From contig JBCCWR010000001.1 of NCBI GenBank assembly GCA_039193385.1, positions 7,755-71,754 on the forward strand: a stretch of DNA of 64,000 nucleotides. Reading direction: 5' to 3'. Of the stretch, positions 1-57,871 are shown in pieces. The notes beneath the pieces were generated by a model, which was given only the letters and a program-made list of their open reading frames with translations, had not been told where the DNA came from and made no database searches. Each line of letters begins with the position of its first letter. Position 1 is the stretch's first letter. The position numbers and the translations under genes were made by a program. This DNA is from Verrucomicrobiota bacterium. Lineage in GTDB: Bacteria > Verrucomicrobiota > Verrucomicrobiia > Methylacidiphilales > JBCCWR01.

Positions 1-1
1 C

Positions 2-736
2 AATGACGCTATGAATGTAGCCATTGATGAAATAAAAAATTCCAGCGACTCCATATCTAAGGTCATTAAGACCATTGATGAGATTGCCTTTCAGACCAAT
101 ATTCTTGCCTTAAATGCTTCTGTAGAAGCTGCGCGTGCTGGCGAAGCTGGGCTGGGCTTTGCCGTTGTTGCAGATGAAGTGAGAGCATTAGCTCAAAGAA
201 GTGCCGATGCAGCGAGGGAAACGGCTGATCTGATTCAAGACTCGATCGATAAAAGTAATGAGGGCGTGGAAGCTTGTAAAAAAGTAAACGATAGCTTGGC
301 AAGCATCACCAGTCGTGCTGACGATGTGAGCCAAAACCTCGATGATATCAGCGAAAAAGTAAGGGACGTGGACCGAGCCGTCGGCCAAATCACCGAAGCC
401 TCATTGGAGCAGCAGGCTGGCATTGACCACATTGGTAAAGCCATGAGTGAGATTGACCACTTGACGCAAAATAGTGTTCAAGCTGCTCAACAAGAGGCTA
501 CACAGGCTAAAGATCTCATAGAGCATGCAGCCTTTCTCAAACAAACTGTGGGGCAACTCAGAGCAATTGTAGGCACCCGAGCAGAGACTCATAACGGTGC
601 GTCTGCTGCCTTAACCTTAACAGATGCGGATACCTCTCCATCATCTTCATCGATTCCTCTTAGGCCAGACTCAGCAGGAGCCATGGAGCCACAACCCCTG
701 ACCCTACCTGATAGAGCGAGCGCTAATTTCTTTTGA
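2..736 (+). CDS. methyl-accepting chemotaxis protein, C-terminal signalling part (5' end outside window)
   Basis: The frame is open from base 2 (ORF track 11..736). The translation contains the MCP hairpin-tip core [44 protein letters not shown]. Confidence 0.85.
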
Positions 737-744
737 GTAACCCT

Positions 745-777
745 GGTCTTATCGCTATTGCTTCATGCGGGTTTAAC
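745..777 (+). repeat. dispersed intergenic repeat, short copy
   Basis: CTATTGCTTCATGCGGGTTTAA shares the ATTGCNTNATGCGGGTTNAA core with eight other sites in the window. It begins 9 nt after the MCP stop codon. Confidence 0.5.
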
Positions 778-887
778 AAAATGATGGATTAGGGCCGATA
801 GCTCGAGGTAAGTAAATGTTTCCGCTTATTCATTCATGGGTAGAGGCGCTTTTTTTGACAGCCATAAGAATGATGTAAGATTGGGTT

Positions 888-1346
888 ATGGCAGAATTAA
901 AAGTTGGCAATAAGGCACCCGCTCTTACAGCCCTAAATCAGTCAGGTGAGAAAGTCAGTCTGCAGGACTTTGCGGGTCAGCGCGTTGTTCTGTATTTTTA
1001 TCCCAAGGATGATACGCCCGGATGCACCAAAGAGGCTTGTGCTTTTCGTGATAACCATAAAGCCTTTGCCAGTAAGAATACGGTCATTCTGGGAGTCAGT
1101 CCAGATGCACCCCAGAAGCATGAAAAATTTATCACTAAATATAACTTACCCTTCACCTTGTTGGCGGACGAAGATCATGCCATAAGCGAAAAGTATGGCG
1201 TTTGGGTGGAGAAGAGTATGTATGGCAAACAGTACATGGGCGTAGAGCGCTCAACCTTTGTTATTGATGTGGAAGGTAAGCTGGAGGCTATTTACCACAA
1301 GGTTAAGCCCGAGCCACATGTCATGGAGGTGCTGGAATCGCTCTAG
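888..1346 (+). CDS. bcp: thioredoxin-dependent thiol peroxidase (peroxiredoxin Bcp)
   Basis: 152 aa with the AhpC/TSA motif FYPKDDTPGCTKEACAFRD. Length and layout are typical of Bcp. Confidence 0.9.
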   Translation: MAELKVGNKAPALTALNQSGEKVSLQDFAGQRVVLYFYPKDDTPGCTKEACAFRDNHKAFASKNTVILGVSPDAPQKHEKFITKYNLPFTLLADEDHAISEKYGVWVEKSMYGKQYMGVERSTFVIDVEGKLEAIYHKVKPEPHVMEVLESL

Positions 1347-1361
1347 CTGATAAACTTTCCA

Positions 1362-1581
1362 ACCATGAAGAACATGAAGGAAGTGAAGGAAAAAGCCTTT
1401 TAACCCGCATTAACCAAACAGAACGAGTCAGATGTGTTAATGCTTCAGGAGAAGAGACTTTAGAGACAATGCAGTTGTATCAAAAAGTATTACGACAAGT
1501 TTGCTATAAAGTCTCCACTTCCAAGATCTTGCACAGATGATCGTGTTGCTATTGCATTATGCTCTTCAAGTTCTTCATGGT
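1362..1581. repeat. ~220-bp imperfect palindromic (MITE-like) non-coding element
   Basis: Outer inverted repeats are ACCATGAAGAACATGAAG (1362-1379) and CTTCAAGTTCTTCATGGT (1564-1581), matching 17/18. An inverted pair of dispersed-repeat copies sits at 1398-1436 (-) and 1515-1562 (+). Inner inverted repeats are AGACTTTAGAGACAA (1455-1469) and TTGCTATAAAGTCT (1501-1514). No credible ORF is present. Confidence 0.45.
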
Positions 1582-1607
1582 AAAAATGAGTTCTAAAGCT
1601 GACCGTC
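1558..1607. repeat. extra copy 1 of the comM-proximal 27-mer plus a diverged remnant of the comM 3' end
   Basis: TATGCTCTTCAAGTTCTTCATGGTAAAAATGAGTTCTAAAGCTGACCGTC aligns with the native sequence at 2450-2503 (CATGCTCTTCAAGTTCTTCATGGTAAATTAGCCCCAGAGTTGACGGTC). Confidence 0.6.
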
Positions 1608-1733
1608 ATTGATGTGGAAGGTAAGCTGGAGGCTATTTACCACAAGGTTAAGCCCGAGCCACATGTGATGGAGGTGCTGGAATCGCTCTAGCTGATAAAC
1701 TTTCCAACCATGAAGAACATGAAGGAAGTGAAG
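1608..1733 (+). repeat. 126-bp duplicate of the bcp 3' end plus 42 nt downstream (source 1263..1388)
   Basis: Position-by-position comparison at offset 345 gives 125/126 identical. The only difference, at 1322 versus 1667 (gtc/gtg), is synonymous in the bcp frame. Confidence 0.95.
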
Positions 1734-1888
1734 TTAAGACCACCCAAAAGGCATCAACACTGTAGTTTTTTTCTTCAAAAGAAGACATTTTCATAAGTTG
1801 ATTCGAGGAGATCAAGGCCAGGGCCAAGGTGTTTATGAATTTCGATAGCACAGCCAATGACTTGATTGGACAACTGGGTCAATTTCAT
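1734..1888 (-). pseudogene. 5' fragment of a GxxExxY-family (PD-(D/E)XK) gene
   Basis: From the ATG at 1888 it reads MKLTQLSNQVIGCAIEIHKHLGPGLDLLESTYENVFF, then TGA at 1775-1777. This is clearly homologous to the first ~35 codons of the intact gene at 2038..2409, after which similarity is lost. Confidence 0.8.
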
Positions 1889-1956
1889 TTTATTGCTTAT
1901 TTTTATAAAATCACCAAGACGTATGCGTCGTAAGAAAGAAGTGAGTTAAAACGCAT

Positions 1957-2010
1957 CATGCTCTTCAAGTTCTTCATGGTAAAAATGAGCTCCAAAGCTG
2001 GCGGTCGAGG
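1957..2010. repeat. extra copy 2 of the comM-proximal 27-mer plus a remnant of the comM 3' end
   Basis: CATGCTCTTCAAGTTCTTCATGGTAAAAATGAGCTCCAAAGCTGGCGGTCGAGGG. The minus strand still reads LDRQLWS, compared with the native comM C-terminus LDRQLWG*. Confidence 0.75.
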
Positions 2011-2037
2011 GCATGATGGCTATGGCATAATACGGAT

Positions 2038-2409
2038 TTAAAGAATAAAACTTTTCAGGCCATTCTTAAGTTTTGTCGTAATGAAATTAATAAGAAAGCC
2101 GTATTTGATTTTAGCCAGCTTCATGTATGTGATTAACTGAGCTTGATGAATGTTTTTAATTTCATCGACGCTCTTCAGTTCCAGTATGATCTGATTATCA
2201 ACCAAGATATCGATTCTGTAAGCACAGTCTATGGATACATTTTTGTATGTTACAGGTAGAGGGTGTTGTAATGTGAAGTTGATATGATGTGTTTGTAATT
2301 CGTAAGCGAGACATTTTTCATAAGTTGATTCCAGAAGACCCGGGCCTAGGTTTTTATGGACTTCGATAGCGCAGCCAATGACTTGATTGGATAACTGGGT
2401 AAATTTCAT
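2038..2409 (-). CDS. GxxExxY family protein (PD-(D/E)XK nuclease superfamily)
   Basis: 123 aa with the signature GPGLLESTYE (G-x-x-E-x-x-Y) and a D...ELK motif (RIDILVDNQIILELKSV). The size is typical of the family. Confidence 0.85.
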   Translation of the reverse strand: MKFTQLSNQVIGCAIEVHKNLGPGLLESTYEKCLAYELQTHHINFTLQHPLPVTYKNVSIDCAYRIDILVDNQIILELKSVDEIKNIHQAQLITYMKLAKIKYGFLINFITTKLKNGLKSFIL

Positions 2410-2476
2410 TTTATTGATACTTTTAAAAAATTACCAAGATTGAGAGGTTCATGCTCTTCAAGTTCTTCATGGTAAA

Positions 2477-4027
2477 TTAGCCCCAGAGTTGACGGTCGAG
2501 GGTGCGGTATTGCACCGCTTCACTGACATGATCGGCACGGATGTGTGGGCTCTCTTCTAAATCTGCGATGGTGCGGGATACTTTTCGGATGCGATCGTAA
2601 GCGCGTGCGGAGAGATTCAGATCTTCCATGGAGTAACGGAGGATGTTTTGAGATTCTTCATCAAGGGGTGCAAAGTTCGTTAGTTCTTTGGCATTCATCT
2701 GTGCGTTACACCAGATTTTTCTGCCATTGCTGCCATTGGATGATTGGTAACGTTTTTGTTGAAGCTGACGGGCTTGTATGATGCGTTGGCGAATGGTGGC
2801 CGAGTTTTCACCGTTATTTTGGTCTATGAGGTGTTTATGTTCCAACGCAGCAACCTCAAGGTGAATGTCAATGCGGTCTAGAAGAGGGCCAGATATTTTA
2901 TTGAGGTAGCGTTGCATGGCGTGATGCGAGATTTTTCCTCTGTCTGCATCGCCGTGAGATCCCGAAGGCGTGGGGTTCATGGCGGCGACAAACATGAAGC
3001 GCGAAGGAAAGGTGAGCGAACCGGATGCTCGGGAGATGGTGACGCTGCCATCTTCCAGAGGCTGGCGCAGCACTTCCAGTGCGGAACGTTTGAACTCTGG
3101 CAGCTCGTCCATGAAGAGTACGCCATTGTGCGCCAGCGAAACTTCTCCGGGGGTAGGATTGGCTGAACCTCCGATGAGGCCAATATCAGAAATGGTGTGG
3201 TGTGGAGAGCGAAAAGGGCGCTGTGCGATGATGGGTTGCTGTGGGCTGGTCAGCCCGCATACGGAATGGATGCGAGTTGTTTCAAGGGCTTCTTCAAGTG
3301 TGAGTGGTGGAAGGATGGTTGGTATACGTTTGGCCAACATGCTTTTACCCGCGCCAGGGTTGCCTACCATGAGGAGATTATGTCCCCCAGCAGCGGCAAT
3401 CTCAATGGCACGTTTGGCCGACTCCTGACCTTTGACCTCGGCAAAGTCGAGTGAATCTAACATACGGTTGTGGCTGGCAGCGGGATCAAAATTTCCCCGC
3501 TGCGGGGTGATGTCGAGTTTACCCTCGAGGAATTCGACAGCTTGTCCCAGGGAATGAAGAGGATAGACGGATAACCCTTCTACTACGGAAGCTTCTCCGG
3601 CATTTTCATGCGGCACGAGTAAACCTCGACAGCCTTTTTCACGAGCCAGTAAAGCCAGAGGCAGAATACCTCGAATAGCGCGTAGACTACCGTCCAGAGC
3701 AAGTTCCCCAGCCATAAAAAAGTGATGAAGCAGTTGAGGCTCCAGTTGTTTCGATGCGGCAAGAATGCTCAGGGCGATGGGCAGGTCAAAGATAGGACCT
3801 TCCTTTTTAATGTCAGCAGGGGCGAGGTTGATGGTGATGCGTCCATCCGGATGATCGAAGCCGCTGTTGGCTAGAGCTGTTTTAACACGATCGCGAGATT
3901 CCTTAACGGCTGTGTCTGGCAGACCTACCATAACGACGGCGGGAAGTCCGCGTCCAGAATCTACTTCCACTTCCACAGGAAAGGCTTGTACACCGATGAC
4001 CGCTCCAGACAATGCTTTCGCTAACAT
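2477..4027 (-). CDS. comM: YifB/ComM family Mg-chelatase-like AAA+ ATPase
   Basis: 516 aa. It has an N-terminal Lon-like domain (MLAKALSGAVIGVQAFPVEVEVD), Walker A GNPGAGKS, and VLFMDELPEF. Confidence 0.9.
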   Translation of the reverse strand: MLAKALSGAVIGVQAFPVEVEVDSGRGLPAVVMVGLPDTAVKESRDRVKTALANSGFDHPDGRITINLAPADIKKEGPIFDLPIALSILAASKQLEPQLLHHFFMAGELALDGSLRAIRGILPLALLAREKGCRGLLVPHENAGEASVVEGLSVYPLHSLGQAVEFLEGKLDITPQRGNFDPAASHNRMLDSLDFAEVKGQESAKRAIEIAAAGGHNLLMVGNPGAGKSMLAKRIPTILPPLTLEEALETTRIHSVCGLTSPQQPIIAQRPFRSPHHTISDIGLIGGSANPTPGEVSLAHNGVLFMDELPEFKRSALEVLRQPLEDGSVTISRASGSLTFPSRFMFVAAMNPTPSGSHGDADRGKISHHAMQRYLNKISGPLLDRIDIHLEVAALEHKHLIDQNNGENSATIRQRIIQARQLQQKRYQSSNGSNGRKIWCNAQMNAKELTNFAPLDEESQNILRYSMEDLNLSARAYDRIRKVSRTIADLEESPHIRADHVSEAVQYRTLDRQLWG

Positions 4028-4113
4028 CAGAATGTTATGCCGGGGCGTTGAAGCTATTGTCTAGCGATAACACTTGAATGTTTAAAAAAATAGAGCGATG
4101 TAACGTTTAATGA

Positions 4114-5415
4114 TCAGGTGGATCGCTGGCCGGCCCTTTTACGTACGGTTTTTTTAACGGTTTTTCGAGCCGTTTTCTTCGCTACGGGTTTTTTGGAGAC
4201 CGCTTTCTTGATCGTTTTTTTGGTAACTTTTTTGGCAGAAGCAGAACGTTTGCGAGCTATCTTTTTATTTGTTATTTTTTTAGCTGCCTTGCGAGGAGTG
4301 CTTGATGCAGGACGCGTATTGTCTACCGAAGCGAGGAGCAGATTAAGTGCTTTAAGGATATGGATTCCTTGAGGTATTTCAAATGCTTGAGGATTGTATT
4401 CGTTCTCTCGGCTGCGAGTTTTGATCCAGCGAATCTTGGCCGCCTCGGAGACATGGGAGATGTCTGATTTTTCAAGACGACGCACATGCTTGGGAAGTAT
4501 TTTAAATAAACCTTCCAAGCCATCACTGAAGCTCGCCATAGGGTCCATATGATGCAGGGCCTGCTGTACTTTCTTCGCATCGAAGGTAAGCTTAAGCTTC
4601 AAGATGGAGATGGTTTCAATCATCCAAGTCAGTGCGGCATCTGCAAGTTTGCTGTTATCAAGCTCGGATGGATCTTTGCTGGTTGTACCGCCGCCAACAG
4701 AGCTGTGTCCTCCAGGGAACCAAACTTCTATGACGCGTTGAGAGGCAGGAGAGTGTGTGCCTTTATCCATAGGCGTATTACAAAAAGAACGACGCTTTTC
4801 ATCAATGGCTACGGCATGCAGGGCATTTTTAATAATAGGACTGATGCTTGTATCATGAAACTGGTATTTCCCATTCCAGAGACGATCCAGAGGAATGAAG
4901 GGAACAATGTCGGGCAATCCGCGTGAACCGACGGTGTCCCAACATGCTACCAGATCTATGTTGATTTCACGGCTAAAGCTTTCGCGAAACTCGACCTTTT
5001 CCTTTTCGTTAAAATCCTTACCGCTTTTATACGTTTTAAAAGCTTCATCAATGTGGGAAAAGAATTCTGTTTTGAGAAGGCCGACATGGTAGATCATACC
5101 TGCCAGACTGCGCACAGTGTAAGCGCCGCGGCTGTAACCAAAAAAGTATAGCTCATCTCCCGGTTCATAATTGAGGATGAGAAAGCGATAGGCTTCTTTG
5201 ATGTTCTGGTCGAGTCCTTTGCCGAAGGCGCCGCCACGAAGTTTGCTCAGAGGGCTGTCTGTGCCGACACCAGAATCATAGTATTTGATTTGAGGAACAG
5301 GGCTGGGTCCGGTGGTGTCGAGAGTTTCAATAGCCTCATAAATTTTGAAAACATTGGTTTGATTCGCTGGTGTGAGCCAGGTTCCGTCACAACAAATAAT
5401 AAGACGTTTTTTCAT
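4114..5415 (-). CDS. DUF2235 (Tle1-like alpha/beta hydrolase) protein with a Lys-rich histone H1-like C-terminal tail
   Basis: The N-terminus LIICCDGTW...GVGT...FFGYSRGAYTVRSLAG (GxSxG) is typical of DUF2235. The last ~65 aa are KKAAKKITNKKIARKRSASAKKVTKKTIKKAVSKKPVAKKTARKTVKKTVRKRAG. Confidence 0.8.
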   Translation of the reverse strand: MKKRLIICCDGTWLTPANQTNVFKIYEAIETLDTTGPSPVPQIKYYDSGVGTDSPLSKLRGGAFGKGLDQNIKEAYRFLILNYEPGDELYFFGYSRGAYTVRSLAGMIYHVGLLKTEFFSHIDEAFKTYKSGKDFNEKEKVEFRESFSREINIDLVACWDTVGSRGLPDIVPFIPLDRLWNGKYQFHDTSISPIIKNALHAVAIDEKRRSFCNTPMDKGTHSPASQRVIEVWFPGGHSSVGGGTTSKDPSELDNSKLADAALTWMIETISILKLKLTFDAKKVQQALHHMDPMASFSDGLEGLFKILPKHVRRLEKSDISHVSEAAKIRWIKTRSRENEYNPQAFEIPQGIHILKALNLLLASVDNTRPASSTPRKAAKKITNKKIARKRSASAKKVTKKTIKKAVSKKPVAKKTARKTVKKTVRKRAGQRST

Positions 5416-5526
5416 ATGTCGAACTTCTTCCGGAAATTTTCGTCATAGGTGAATTAATGGAAGTTGCAATGAAAAAAGAAATTATTCTCTATTTTTAATA
5501 ATTACAGAACAGTTTCCAGCGTTATT

Positions 5527-5548
5527 TTGAACCCACATTATGCACATT
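5527..5548 (-). repeat. dispersed intergenic repeat, short degenerate copy
   Basis: The minus strand reads AATGTGCATAATGTGGGTTCAA and starts 3 nt after the yraN stop codon. Confidence 0.35.
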
Positions 5549-5550
5549 AC

Positions 5551-6054
5551 CTATTTACGGACTGGAGAAGGTATGGGCAAAGAAAAGGCCTGGGGAATAA
5601 TGTAACACTGAGGAAATTTTCCCGTGTTTAGAATGACTTCCACAATATCAAAACGAGCTGCAGGTAGTTCGACTTCCAGTTGCCTCATGTAAGAATGTGC
5701 GGTGTAGACAAGGCGACGCTGTTTCGAAGTATTAACCGAAGCGCTGGGTGTATCCAACATTTCTTTTGAGCGCGCTTTTACTTCGACAAAAACAAGAACA
5801 TCGTCACGCGGATTGAATGTGCGTAGGCGACACACAAGATCAATCTCCCCCCAGCGGCTGGTATAATTTCTGACCAGGATTTTGTAGTTGTGACGCATCA
5901 AGTGTGCTTCAGCGACGCGCTCTCCAAAAACGCCTGAGGCTTTTGTGCTATGAAAAACCGGGCAGTGTCGTCTGTCGAACGGGAGCAAAAGATTTTCGAT
6001 GCTCCGTACAAGGCCCAAGTTTCTGAAGTGCTGCCAGGTGTTCTTTCGTTCCAT
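5551..6054 (-). CDS. yraN: YraN family (UPF0102) endonuclease-like protein; start codon uncertain
   Basis: GVFGERVAEAHLMRHNYKILVRNYTSRWGEIDLV...LVFVEVKARS matches the YraN pattern. There is no ATG or GTG downstream of the rnhB stop. Candidate starts are ATG 6054, TTG 6018 and TTG 5988, and all of them overlap rnhB. Confidence 0.7.
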   Translation of the reverse strand: MERKNTWQHFRNLGLVRSIENLLLPFDRRHCPVFHSTKASGVFGERVAEAHLMRHNYKILVRNYTSRWGEIDLVCRLRTFNPRDDVLVFVEVKARSKEMLDTPSASVNTSKQRRLVYTAHSYMRQLEVELPAARFDIVEVILNTGKFPQCYIIPQAFSLPIPSPVRK

Positions 6055-9004: not shown

Positions 9005-9024
9005 AATGCATAATGCGGGTTCAA
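9005..9024 (+). repeat. dispersed intergenic repeat, short copy
   Basis: AATGCATAATGCGGGTTCAA lies in the elbB/nrdB divergent spacer. Confidence 0.4.
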
Positions 9025-20323: not shown

Positions 20324-20374
20324 TATGCTTTTTGATATCTTTAAACCGGCATTGAGCAATAGCAACACGACCAT

Positions 20375-20428
20375 CTTCCCAAGCTTTCACACATCTGACT
20401 CGCCCTCTATTGCTTAATACAGGTTAGA
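20375..20428 (+). repeat. dispersed intergenic repeat, long degenerate copy
   Basis: CTTCCCAAGCTTTCACACATCTGACTCGCCCTCTATTGCTTAATACAGGTTAGAA aligns along its length with the copy at 44384-44435. Confidence 0.45.
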
Positions 20429-20470
20429 ATTGACTGGTCAAATCTCTCTTAACAATTTAGCAATGGACTA

Positions 20471-35100: not shown

Positions 35101-35130
35101 CAAAAAGTTCTCGTAAAAGAGTTTTTTCTT

Positions 35131-35189
35131 CACCACTTCCAAGATCTTGCACAGATCGTCGTGTCCCAATGGCATAATGCGGGTTCAAT
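35131..35189 (+). repeat. dispersed intergenic repeat, long copy
   Basis: CACCACTTCCAAGATCTTGCACAGATCGTCGTGTCCCAATGGCATAATGCGGGTTCAAT lies 30 nt after the HDOD gene stop. Confidence 0.5.
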
Positions 35190-37962: not shown

Positions 37963-38089
37963 ATCTTTATTTTTATCAAGAGAAGAAGAGTTAAGTTTGT
38001 TGCATCGGCACTTAACATCAAGACCAGGTGCTTGATTCGGCACAACTTTTTAGCTATTTTAAATACGTATGATGTAATAGAGGGCGAAT

Positions 38090-38138
38090 CAGATCTTGCA
38101 CAGATGGTCCTATCACTATTGCATCATGCGGGTTAAAT
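38090..38138 (+). repeat. dispersed intergenic repeat, long copy
   Basis: CAGATCTTGCACAGATGGTCCTATCACTATTGCATCATGCGGGTTAAAT ends 10 nt before the tRNA 5' end. Confidence 0.5.
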
Positions 38139-38147
38139 CTTGATTTT

Positions 38148-38222
<75 letters not shown>

Positions 38223-44383: not shown

Positions 44384-44435
44384 CTCAAGCTTTTACACGT
44401 CTGATTTGCTCTCTATTGCTTAATGCGGGTTAAAA
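44384..44435 (+). repeat. dispersed intergenic repeat, long copy
   Basis: CTCAAGCTTTTACACGTCTGATTTGCTCTCTATTGCTTAATGCGGGTTAAAA ends 1-2 nt from the argA stop codon, which is on the opposite strand. Confidence 0.5.
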
Positions 44436-56683: not shown

Positions 56684-57871
56684 TTAATACGTCGGCATGT
56701 CTGGGTCGATATCTTCTGCCCAAGCATCAATGCCGCCTTCCAGTGCCCTGAGTTTTTTGAAGCCTGCTTGTTGAAGCTTGCGGTAGGCATCTTCCGTGCG
56801 TTGTTCACCTTTGCAGTAAATAACAATCTCATGTGCTGTATCAAGTTCGTGGATGCGTTTGGGTAGTTCATTGAGAGGTATGAGCTTAGCCTCGGGAATA
56901 TGGGCAATCTCATACTCATGCTGTTCACGTACATCCAGAATCACCAAAGAAGGATCATTCTTCTTTAGCTCGACTAATTCATCGGGCGTGACCTCAGGTG
57001 CGGTGAGGTGTTTCTGTTCTGGCTCATCAACCGGAGCCGTGCCACAGAACTGGTTGTAATCAACAAGTTCCGTGATGGTGGGATTTTCTCCGCAGATAGG
57101 ACAGTTTGGATCTTTGCGAAGCTTCATTTCCCGAAAACGCATTTTTAAAGCATCAAAAATAAGCAATCGACCTATCATCGGATCCCCAATGCCGCAGATG
57201 ATTTTTATAGTTTCGATGGCCTGTAAAACGCCAATCACTCCAGGGAGGACTCCGAGCACTCCGCCTTCTGCGCATGAGGGAACGAGACCTGGGTCGGGTG
57301 GTTCAGGGTAAAGGCAACGGTAGCATGGTCCCTTTTCTCCCCAGAAGACAGTGACCTGCCCATCGAAACGAAAAATGGAGCCATAGACGTTAGGCTTACC
57401 GAGGAGCACGCAGGCATCGTTGACCAGATAACGCGTAGCAAAGTTATCCGTACCATCAAGAATAACGTCGAAATCTTTGGCAATCTCCAGGGCATTATCA
57501 GAGCGGAAGGAGGTCTCAAAAGGAATAACATTAACATGCGGGTTAATGTCTTTCATAGTTTCAATAGCGGAAGAAACTTTCGATTTACCAACGTTAGAAG
57601 ATTTATGGATGATCTGTCGCTGCAGGTTGGTGGTATCCACCACATCGAAGTCGCACAAGCCGATATTACCCACGCCAGCTGCTGTCAGATAAGCTAGTAG
57701 GGGTGATCCAAGACCGCCGGTGCCAACCACCAATACCTTGGATGCTTTCAGCTTCTTTTGTCCTGAAAGAGTCACTTCCGGCATAATCAAATGACGACTG
57801 TAGCGTTTGACTTCTTCATTCGTCATGGTAATGCCGTCTACTCTATCTTCGATATCTGGTATAAAACTCAT
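56684..57871 (-). CDS. moeB: MoeB/ThiF-type adenylyltransferase with C-terminal rhodanese domain
   Basis: RYSRHLIMPEV..., VLVVGTGGLGSP, CxxC pairs (CYRC and CPIC), and a rhodanese-like tail (VILDVREQHEYEIAHIPEA...YCKGEQR). Confidence 0.85.
   Translation of the reverse strand: MSFIPDIEDRVDGITMTNEEVKRYSRHLIMPEVTLSGQKKLKASKVLVVGTGGLGSPLLAYLTAAGVGNIGLCDFDVVDTTNLQRQIIHKSSNVGKSKVSSAIETMKDINPHVNVIPFETSFRSDNALEIAKDFDVILDGTDNFATRYLVNDACVLLGKPNVYGSIFRFDGQVTVFWGEKGPCYRCLYPEPPDPGLVPSCAEGGVLGVLPGVIGVLQAIETIKIICGIGDPMIGRLLIFDALKMRFREMKLRKDPNCPICGENPTITELVDYNQFCGTAPVDEPEQKHLTAPEVTPDELVELKKNDPSLVILDVREQHEYEIAHIPEAKLIPLNELPKRIHELDTAHEIVIYCKGEQRTEDAYRKLQQAGFKKLRALEGGIDAWAEDIDPDMPTY

Follow-up and report, generated by a model that had tools for sequence, protein, structure and literature searches.

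Serial gene-end duplications around a probably mobile GxxExxY gene cassette between bcp and comM in a Verrucomicrobiota genome

The closest described analogue of the element reported here is the intervening sequence (IVS) of 23S rRNA genes that carries an S23p open reading frame (ORF) and is excised by RNase III (PMC4990558). In Coxiella and Leptospira, the S23p ORF of about 120 aa lies within a stem of 28-bp terminal inverted repeats, with tandem heptamers on the 5' side; these IVSs are regarded as selfish, their repeat copy number varies between strains, and their mobility is unexplained (PMC4990558). Here we analyze a locus of similar design that lies between two protein genes. It was found in a 64-kb stretch of a contig from a Verrucomicrobiota metagenome-assembled genome (MAG), hereafter called the window, in whose positions the coordinates of the locus are given. 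Between the convergent genes bcp and comM of this window, a GxxExxY (PDDEXK_3) gene is flanked by short inverted arrays, which we call arms, and partial extra copies of both host-gene ends surround it.

Our results suggest, with moderate confidence, that the extra gene ends arose through a series of duplicative illegitimate recombination events around a GxxExxY cassette that is probably mobile. Four points were observed directly: how the locus is built, the association of arms and gene across the family, the recurrence of the cassette as a unit and the similar duplications at other cassettes.

Architecture of the bcp-comM spacer

Read from comM towards bcp, the locus consists of three units in a row. 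The unit at comM is made of arm L(A) (beta-A in Table 1) and the intact GxxExxY gene, which lies 67 nt downstream of comM on the same strand. The next contains comM-end relic B, arm L(B) (beta-B), a truncated GxxExxY gene, arm R(2) (alpha-2) and a bcp-end relic, and the last contains comM-end relic C, arm L(C) (beta-C), a palindromic element resembling a miniature inverted-repeat transposable element (MITE) or repetitive extragenic palindrome (REP), arm R(1) (alpha-1) and the native bcp end. The cassette, a module of ~0.5 kb, fits precisely between the stop codons of the two convergent genes. The nearest downstream arm of the intact gene is ~305 nt away, past relic B and the truncated copy.

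On the bcp side, 1260-1388 and 1605-1733 form a direct repeat with 98% identity. From 1263-1388 to 1608-1733 the sole difference is C1322/G1667, which turns GTC into GTG, valine in both cases. On the comM side, the 27-mer CATGCTCTTCAAGTTCTTCATGGTAAA has exactly three copies in the 64 kb, starting at 1558 (one mismatch), 1957 and 2450, shuffled sequences gave 0 matches, and every copy is followed by 23-27 nt of the comM 3' end. The native comM end reads LDRQLWG* and relic B reads LDRQLWSSFLP*, with three synonymous changes, one replacement and loss of the stop codon. This substitution pattern is suggestive of past function, with numbers too small for a test. Copy C is nearest to copy B (five differences in 54 nt) and has an in-frame stop. 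At 1607/1608, relic C is joined directly to the bcp-end copy, and the parental sequences share ~2 nt of microhomology. The gene-end relics are debris without evident function for bcp or comM.

Thus, the anatomy proposed in a first-pass annotation of this DNA was borne out, including the identities of bcp and comM (yifB), the recurring bcp end plus 42 nt with its single synonymous difference, the triplicate 27-mer with adjoining comM end, the LDRQLWS reading of the second copy and the direct abutment of a comM-end remnant and a bcp-end copy. The comM protein has 516 aa and was matched by its model from end to end. An Rfam scan of 700-2700 found no rRNA and nothing else of relevance, and the counts from intrinsic-terminator and promoter scans were not above chance.

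Table 1. Features of the bcp-comM spacer and copies of the palindromic element in the window
Feature	Positions	Strand	Evidence or remark
bcp (thioredoxin-dependent thiol peroxidase), intact	888..1346	+	NCBIfam NF006960, E 5.5e-52, full length
Block a1, outer part: native last 87 nt of bcp and 15-nt spacer	1260..1361	+	direct repeat, recurs at 1605-1706
Downstream cassette arm alpha-1	1362..1388	+	ACCATGAAG AA CATGAAG GA AGTGAAG, three 7-mer cores; inverted repeat of the 27-mer
Cargo of unit 1: palindromic MITE/REP-like element, ends TTTAACCCGCAT...GCTATTGCAT	1396..1562	.	replaces the ORF between arms alpha-1 and beta-C
Upstream cassette arm beta-C	1558..1584	-	27-mer with 1 mismatch
comM 3'-end relic C, 23 nt, reading DGQL*NS	1585..1607	-	alignment to native comM end
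Block a2: bcp 3'-end relic (stop 1689-1691), spacer and arm alpha-2 (1707-1733)	1605..1733	+	
56 nt between arm alpha-2 and truncated GxxExxY gene	1734..1789	.	without match in the window or the full copy
Second GxxExxY gene, 5' fragment (~32 codons)	1790..1888	-	tblastn 85% identity over 33 aa; TIGR04256 E 5.3e-6
Promoter and ribosome-binding site (RBS) region of the truncated copy	1889..1956	-	homologous to 2410-2449, plus a 27-nt insertion (alignment)
Upstream cassette arm beta-B	1957..1983	-	27-mer, exact
comM 3'-end relic B, 27 nt, LDRQLWSS, then FLP* inside the arm	1984..2010	-	alignment
Intact GxxExxY / PDDEXK_3 (predicted nuclease) gene, 123 aa	2038..2409	-	TIGR04256 E 6.3e-44; PF13366 E 7e-43
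Upstream cassette arm beta-A, directly past the comM stop codon	2450..2476	-	27-mer, exact
comM / yifB (Mg chelatase-like AAA ATPase), intact	2477..4027	-	TIGR00368 E 1.3e-191
MITE/REP-like copies or ends	755-776, 1396-1562, 9013-9024, 20341-20429		
MITE/REP-like copies or ends	35130-35188, 38066-38137, 44384-44435, 57536-57547		

The palindromic element belongs to a family with the ends TTTAACCCGCAT...ATGCGGGTTAAA, of which at least eight copies are present in the window, all intergenic and unrelated to the arms. Both ends of the copy at 1396-1562 match the copies at 20356-20429, 35130-35188, 38066-38137 and 44384-44435. One copy of the family ends 11 nt before a tRNA-Met gene (38148-38222). 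A derivation of the first bases of the 27-mer (CATGC) from the end of the palindromic element was rejected, as these bases are the third 7-mer core of the arm.

The arms and the GxxExxY family

The 18-mer ACCATGAAGAACWTGAAG has five copies in the window, all at this locus (0.01 expected). Two copies lie on the + strand after the bcp ends, and three lie on the - strand before the comM ends. Because of this opposite-strand placement, the 27-mer and the 27 nt past bcp are inverted repeats of each other, and arm alpha-1 and the 27-mer arms are 94% complementary over 18 nt. The 27 nt past bcp are the downstream arm of the GxxExxY cassette, and the 27-mer is very likely its upstream arm and not a sequence of comM. 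In general, an arm contains 3-4 copies of CAYRRAG, in opposite orientation on the two sides of the gene; the arms in the window have three CATGAAG-like cores. As a working definition, an armed cassette is an ORF with inverted arrays of at least 2-3 CAYRRAG-type cores, spaced 9-11 nt apart, within ~130 nt. By this definition, the cassette in the window is armed, with the beta and alpha arms listed in Table 1.

Arms of this kind flank GxxExxY genes at more than 100 loci of other phyla, so the association of the 27-mer with comM that was assumed in the first-pass annotation does not hold. In a Desantisbacteria locus, TTTTACCACGAAGAACACGAAG precedes the GxxExxY gene. The close homologues P0040 (Candidatus Desantisbacteria) and P0061, both 67% identical to the window protein, have the same type of sequence beside the gene, in one case with TTTTACCACGAAGAACACGAAGAACAC ahead of the ATG and CTTCGTGCTCTTCGTGCTCTTCGTGGTAAAAA past the stop codon. 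The motif ACCAYGAAGRAC is directly beside the ORF in 21/21 close-homologue loci, which comprise the P0061 and P0040 sets and the window copy as it appears in L001, an independent Logan unitig (k=31, run SRR22824305).

Scanning metagenomes added 80 loci, whose proteins are 50-69% identical. Nearly all of these ORFs have 3-4 tandem 7-mer cores on one side and the reverse complement on the other, with CACGAAG, CATGAAG, CACAGAG and CACGGAG as core variants. Tandem-core arms reach 3.33 per kb within 150 nt of the ORF versus 0.11 per kb farther away (0.63 per kb of non-ORF DNA), and their density in comM control loci is 0.027 per kb (0.17 per kb of non-ORF DNA). The inverted repeat between the two 120-nt flanks exceeded all 20 shuffles in 44/68 loci. 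The core-to-core spacing is 9-10 nt, occasionally 11 nt, and the complementarity between paired arms is 95% in the cores and 47% in the 2-3-nt spacers between them. The type of core tracks protein relatedness (68% vs 57% identity, 0/2000 permutations), and distant members (33% identity; L032 and L040) use other 9-mers (GCGCAAAAG and CGCGAATTn) in the same layout.

The ORF at 2038-2409 is a member of the family, with 149 bits for TIGR04256 (cut-off 35) and 146 bits for PF13366 (cut-off 22). The fragment ORF at 1775-1888 scores 26.8 bits, under the TIGR04256 cut-off, and covers only the N-terminus. An AlphaFold2 (AF2) model of the 123-aa protein has a pLDDT of 92.4 and an alpha-beta core with a PD-(D/E)XK fold. 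The best solved structural matches are lambda exonuclease and Cas4 SSO0001, both weak (E 4e-3 to 9e-3, none at or below 1e-3), and sequence searches detected no solved structure for the GxxExxY protein. Residues D61, D67, E77 and K79 are invariant in 30 homologues. The protein is thus predicted to be a minimal PD-(D/E)XK nuclease with an intact catalytic D...(D/E)xK motif. Membership in a defence system was also considered and set aside, as the searches returned only a weak similarity to the Cas4 core (weak matches to Cas4 hidden Markov models). With 18,998 cluster representatives (50% identity, E <= 1e-3), GxxExxY/PDDEXK_3 is among the larger uncharacterised small-protein families of environmental bacteria. 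It is named in NCBIfam and Pfam, and the searchable literature mentions it just in passing, with its function listed as unknown. About 20 of the best 150 family representatives (P0241-P0254 and others) have 260-295 aa and two GxxExxY domains; these proteins look like fused or read-through tandem cassettes.

The cassette recurs as a unit in unrelated contexts. Where the flanks of two loci are unrelated, homology is restricted to the gene and 40-110 nt on each side, with 94.6% identity over 522 nt for L135/L146 and 89.9% over 534 nt for L137/L143; L125/L128/L140 are cassette-limited likewise. The homology between loci stops at the outer arm edges, TTTCACCACGAAG...CTTCGTGGTGAAAA, and in all of these sets the unit is bounded by terminal inverted repeats. 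This recurrence is that of related cassettes, and the cassette of the window itself has no near-identical copy. Derivatives of the unit also occur. Solo hairpins with both arms and a 15-30-nt loop are present near several GxxExxY genes, and internally deleted cassettes in L096/L100 and L111 retain both arms and a few terminal codons. For L171/L182, the cassette is 92.6% identical versus 73-82% for the flanks, and such excess conservation hints at recent exchange or conversion between lineages. The cassette is probably selfish mobile DNA.

Other observations concern the surroundings of the cassettes. Complete solo hairpins with ~30-nt loops are located on either side of the P0061 GxxExxY gene in L082 (2806-2890 and 3378-3480); their loops are related to each other, and small unannotated ORFs (121 and 113 aa) adjoin. 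In the context-sharing pairs L171/L182, L116/L117 and L169/L184, the cassette (85-93%) is more conserved than at least one flank, and in L171/L182 (2380-2865) and L169/L184 it is more conserved than both (71-82%). Some GxxExxY genes sit amid long tandem arrays on one or both sides, with periods of ~62 to ~190 nt and 75-95% identity (L129 2278-2811; L176 1728-2409 and 2924-3389; L180 1988-2490 and 3053-3777; L171 1738-2310; L169 3058-3622; L178 2883-3415). At 1-1067 of L151, the GxxExxY gene itself is repeated with a 367-nt period and 99.6% identity; this may be a genuine cassette array or, the contig being short, an artefact of assembly.

Duplication of neighbouring DNA is found at other cassettes too. 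In L145, a GxxExxY cassette is flanked by a 124-nt direct repeat (87%) composed of an arm, a 25-nt spacer and the first 72 nt of ribBA; the upstream copy of ribBA carries a frameshift and stops right at the other arm. L096/L100 have 172 nt more than L092, to which they are otherwise 99.5% identical. The extra DNA is an internally deleted cassette, and with it comes a 74-nt repeat (arm, RBS and 11 codons) of 98.6% identity. Compared with L113, L111 has a second cassette, internally deleted, and a 183-nt repeat of the downstream flank (97.8%). Direct repeats of at least 45 nt surround the GxxExxY gene in ~35/80 loci, a count that includes the long tandem arrays. On the basis of these cases, local duplication that includes neighbouring DNA is a recurrent property of the cassettes.

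The cassettes also lie right against the stop codons of host genes. The dut gene beside the Desantisbacteria cassette of L092 (2951-2989; dUTPase) no longer has its native stop codon and continues into the arm (GENMEHFYHEEHEEH*), whereas dut ends in GENT* or GENI* in cassette-free relatives (L185 3490-3513 and L186 3490-3513). The comM relic B represents a parallel state, with comM reading four codons into the arm. The dut relatives without the cassette are also without synteny, so that they define only the native dut stop and provide no clean empty site for the Desantisbacteria cassette. The read-through of the L092 dUTPase into the arm comprises 11 codons (MEHFYHEEHEEH*). With a similarity of just ~60-65%, a decayed dut end is a tentative candidate for the origin of the 36 nt ahead of the second L096 arm.

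Origin of the duplicated gene ends

The copies in the window differ in age. Over 33 codons, the truncated and the intact GxxExxY gene differ at a synonymous proportion (pS) of 0.37 and a nonsynonymous proportion (pN) of 0.078. The low pN beside the high pS indicates that the two copies split long ago and were retained mostly as functional genes. Arms beta-A and beta-B are identical at 28/28 positions, for which the chance at the synonymous rate is ~0.63^28 = 2e-6; either constraint or gene conversion has thus kept the arms alike. All duplicated blocks share their inner edge with that of an arm, and what lies between the arms differs (MITE, truncated gene and intact gene). With three different cargoes between constant arms and greatly differing copy ages, the units are not the identical serial insertions that had been envisaged in the first-pass annotation.

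The more likely history is that two or three separate events of duplicative illegitimate recombination made the extra gene ends, each copying a block composed of a cassette arm and the adjoining host-gene terminus. A block could have been copied by unequal exchange or slippage within the genome, that is, by tandem duplication, or by integration of a related strain's variant allele, one-sided and anchored by homology. One ORF would later have been truncated and one cargo swapped for a MITE, with the arms held intact by constraint or gene conversion. The nuclease may recognise the phased 7-mers, and breaks at the arms may promote the local duplications. That the GxxExxY nuclease acts on the arms at all is a tentative proposal, which we would not put at even chances. 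It is tempting to go further and to speculate that GxxExxY is the enzyme of very widespread, undescribed selfish cassettes of ~0.5 kb, which binds and cuts the helically phased 7-mers of its own arms and mobilises the cassette and its deletion derivatives to gene ends, with the relics here and at L145 as direct footprints of integration by breakage and copying; this extended version is rather doubtful.

Several observations weigh against serial duplicative recombination around a mobile cassette. The bcp-end blocks have one difference in 126 nt versus five in 54 nt for the comM end with its arm, and a single event at 1607/1608 that made one copy of each end would predict equal divergence. To account for this, the bcp-end relic would have had to undergo gene conversion, or a related strain would have had to donate an allele that integrated by homology in bcp and by an illegitimate join in the comM tail. 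Both routes are ordinary illegitimate or duplicative recombination. Plain duplication also leaves unexplained that a MITE has exactly replaced a gene as the cargo within constant arms. The 1607/1608 junction is without independent read support, and 1733/1734 is outside L001 as well. A contig scan and a search of 5.8 billion proteins gave comM relatives of at most 66-67% identity, with other genes downstream; no exact protein match was on record for bcp or for the fragment and junction ORFs, and look-ups of comM and GxxExxY led to one Logan unitig of the same sample. With no close relative or empty site, the order of events and the mechanism are read from one sequence. Furthermore, the window has only this cassette locus, and six cassette pairs showed no target-site duplication at their boundaries.

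Since plain duplication accounts for neither the block edges nor the differing cargoes, a cassette-driven mechanism is kept as a live rival. Each unit would then be the footprint of a separate insertion, and the gene-end relics would record how the cassette integrates. The nuclease would cut at or near an arm, and homing-like copying from a further cassette copy or fill-in of long staggered cuts would follow, so that repair brings in a new cargo and copies both the arm and tens of nucleotides of adjoining host DNA. Such insertions would agree with the identity of the arms beside diverged sequence, with the second case of a duplicated arm and host-gene terminus at the unrelated cassette L145, with the copy-number polymorphisms of cassettes between near-identical strains and with the intact, invariant D...ExK motif. 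However, cassettes in unrelated contexts lack a target duplication, the outer ends of the relic blocks are arbitrary with ~2 nt of microhomology, as in ordinary illegitimate recombination, L111 and L096 resemble tandem duplication followed by internal deletion, and the searchable literature holds no biochemistry on the family; we consider this mechanism unlikely. Less probable still is that the arms act at the RNA level, as a stem that is processed by RNase III or stabilises the transcript, or as a terminator, around an ordinary chromosomal gene, with unrelated random duplications in a spacer where junk is tolerated. The 23S rRNA IVS provides a precedent, the arms can pair, and 1347-1610 (unit 1, with the MITE) folds as single-stranded DNA into one long hairpin (z = -4.5). 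However, folding of the full unit with the intact gene is at the level of shuffles (z = -0.02), no Rfam family was matched, the arm mismatches on the sense strand are 49 G:T versus 65 A:C, and cassette-limited homology in unrelated contexts needs mobility of DNA. A role of the arms as an RNA stem found no support in the mismatch spectrum, the spacer complementarity or the folding of the intact unit. As the spacers are non-complementary, G:U pairs are not favoured and the phasing is 9-10 nt, the 7-mers, set at about one helical turn on one face of the DNA duplex, would fit inverted arrays of protein sites better than an RNA helix.

An assembly artefact, in which strain-allelic spacers or a collapsed repeat were concatenated, is very improbable. 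The source is a MAG, the repeats of 54-129 nt are hard for short reads, and the 152-aa bcp product (888-1346) is absent from an exact-sequence gene index that contains comM and GxxExxY of the same contig, an absence that is expected if the Logan unitig breaks in the duplicated bcp end. However, L001 is 100% identical to 1960-5434 and therefore includes the 2010/2011 junction between relic B and the intact cassette. It ends at 1960 because the next k-mer (1959-1989) lies inside a 32-mer common to copies B and C (1559-1590 = 1958-1989), which forces a branch in the graph; this supports a true presence of both copies in the reads. The 1607/1608 junction does not stem from a shared k-mer, since its two sides share just ~2 nt and a de Bruijn path from the comM end to bcp needs real junction k-mers. 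In addition, a single contig carries this comM and GxxExxY, and analogous structures are present in unrelated assemblies. The first-pass annotation had also raised comM as an integration hot spot. In such a case, a site-specific recombinase from outside, or a Tn7-like system, would target the 3' end of comM repeatedly; the comM-inserted Acinetobacter islands (AbaR/Tn6022-type) are large Tn7-like transposons that interrupt comM. That comM is a target of some islands and that its end is present in three direct copies would speak for a hot spot. However, among 80 comM loci of other bacteria, none had bcp nearby, the motif ACCAYGAAGRAC, or a tandem-core arm within 400 nt downstream of comM (0/80 each), and the 27-mer travels with GxxExxY genes beside unrelated genes in other phyla. 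The comM gene is intact here, the elements lie past its stop codon, and the bcp end is duplicated symmetrically. Thus, the analogy to comM islands is unsupported, and we give the hot spot hardly any chance. As had been pointed out earlier, the units are indeed small (0.2-0.5 kb), and a scan of the ORFs up to ~3.5 kb from the spacer (1-6054) turned up no recombinase, but a predicted nuclease gene lies inside the units. Of the two routes offered in that annotation, tandem duplication of the whole spacer is compatible with our results, and repeated site-specific insertion beside the comM stop finds no support. We therefore retain serial duplicative recombination around a GxxExxY cassette as the preferred explanation.

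Comparison with known systems

Overall, the locus fits a small selfish cassette bounded by inverted repeats, with the gene-end duplications as by-products. A nuclease that acts on its own arms in a selfish cassette is a testable hypothesis for the whole family. For annotation, host genes beside cassettes can acquire relic pseudo-ends or, since the L092 dUTPase reads into its arm, spurious C-terminal extensions.

With the comM islands (AbaR/Tn6022-type), the locus shares only comM as a neighbour; it differs from them in its intact comM, its 0.2-0.5-kb units past the stop codon and the equal involvement of bcp. Like integron cassettes, the elements are small single-gene units separated by imperfect palindromes, and some form tandem arrays with exchangeable cargo (L105, L135, L146 and L170). 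Unlike integrons, they lack a recognised attC organisation with R and L boxes, their arms enclose the gene rather than follow it, and no integrase was found among the ORFs of 1-6054, the part scanned for intI. Moreover, integron insertion leaves the ends of host genes unduplicated.

The terminal inverted repeats at the unit edges, which recur in unrelated contexts, resemble those of MITEs and of small insertion sequences (IS) bounded by terminal inverted repeats (TIR), as do the non-coding derivatives in which both ends survive an internal deletion (L096 and L111). In contrast to TIR-bounded IS, the cassette has a size of only ~0.5 kb, shows no detected target-site duplication and encodes no recognised transposase, its sole protein being a predicted PD-(D/E)XK nuclease. 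Free-standing homing endonuclease genes, as in phage intronless homing, are likewise small nuclease genes between conserved genes with a patchy occurrence and, as with homing genes, pairs such as L171/L182 have flanks that are less conserved than the cassette. Homing enzymes with the PD-(D/E)XK fold are known. However, homing replaces flanks rather than duplicating them, and GxxExxY has no known cleavage target.

The REP/REPIN-RAYT system (RAYT, REP-associated tyrosine transposase) is similar in that a single small nuclease-type gene lies inside inverted copies of its own repeat, the repeat co-varies with the protein, and solo hairpin doublets are found in intergenic DNA (L082, L114, L125, L128, L131 and L140; 0.63 per kb of non-ORF DNA). 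It is different in its HUH/Y1 transposase, where the cassette has a predicted PD-(D/E)XK nuclease, and in its single REP palindrome, where the cassette has arrays of 7-mers; in addition, the arms in the window are confined to this locus. The 23S rRNA IVS differs in its location in helix 25/45, its S23p four-helix bundle and its stem, whereas the cassette is placed between the protein genes bcp and comM, encodes a PDDEXK_3 protein and has arms of phased 7-mers with non-complementary spacers and no G:U bias. The two nevertheless share a small ORF within terminal inverted repeats that can pair into a long stem, short tandem repeats by the start codon and a variable number of these repeats among strains, which provides a conceptual link between the GxxExxY cassettes and the long-unexplained ORF-bearing intervening sequences of 23S rRNA.

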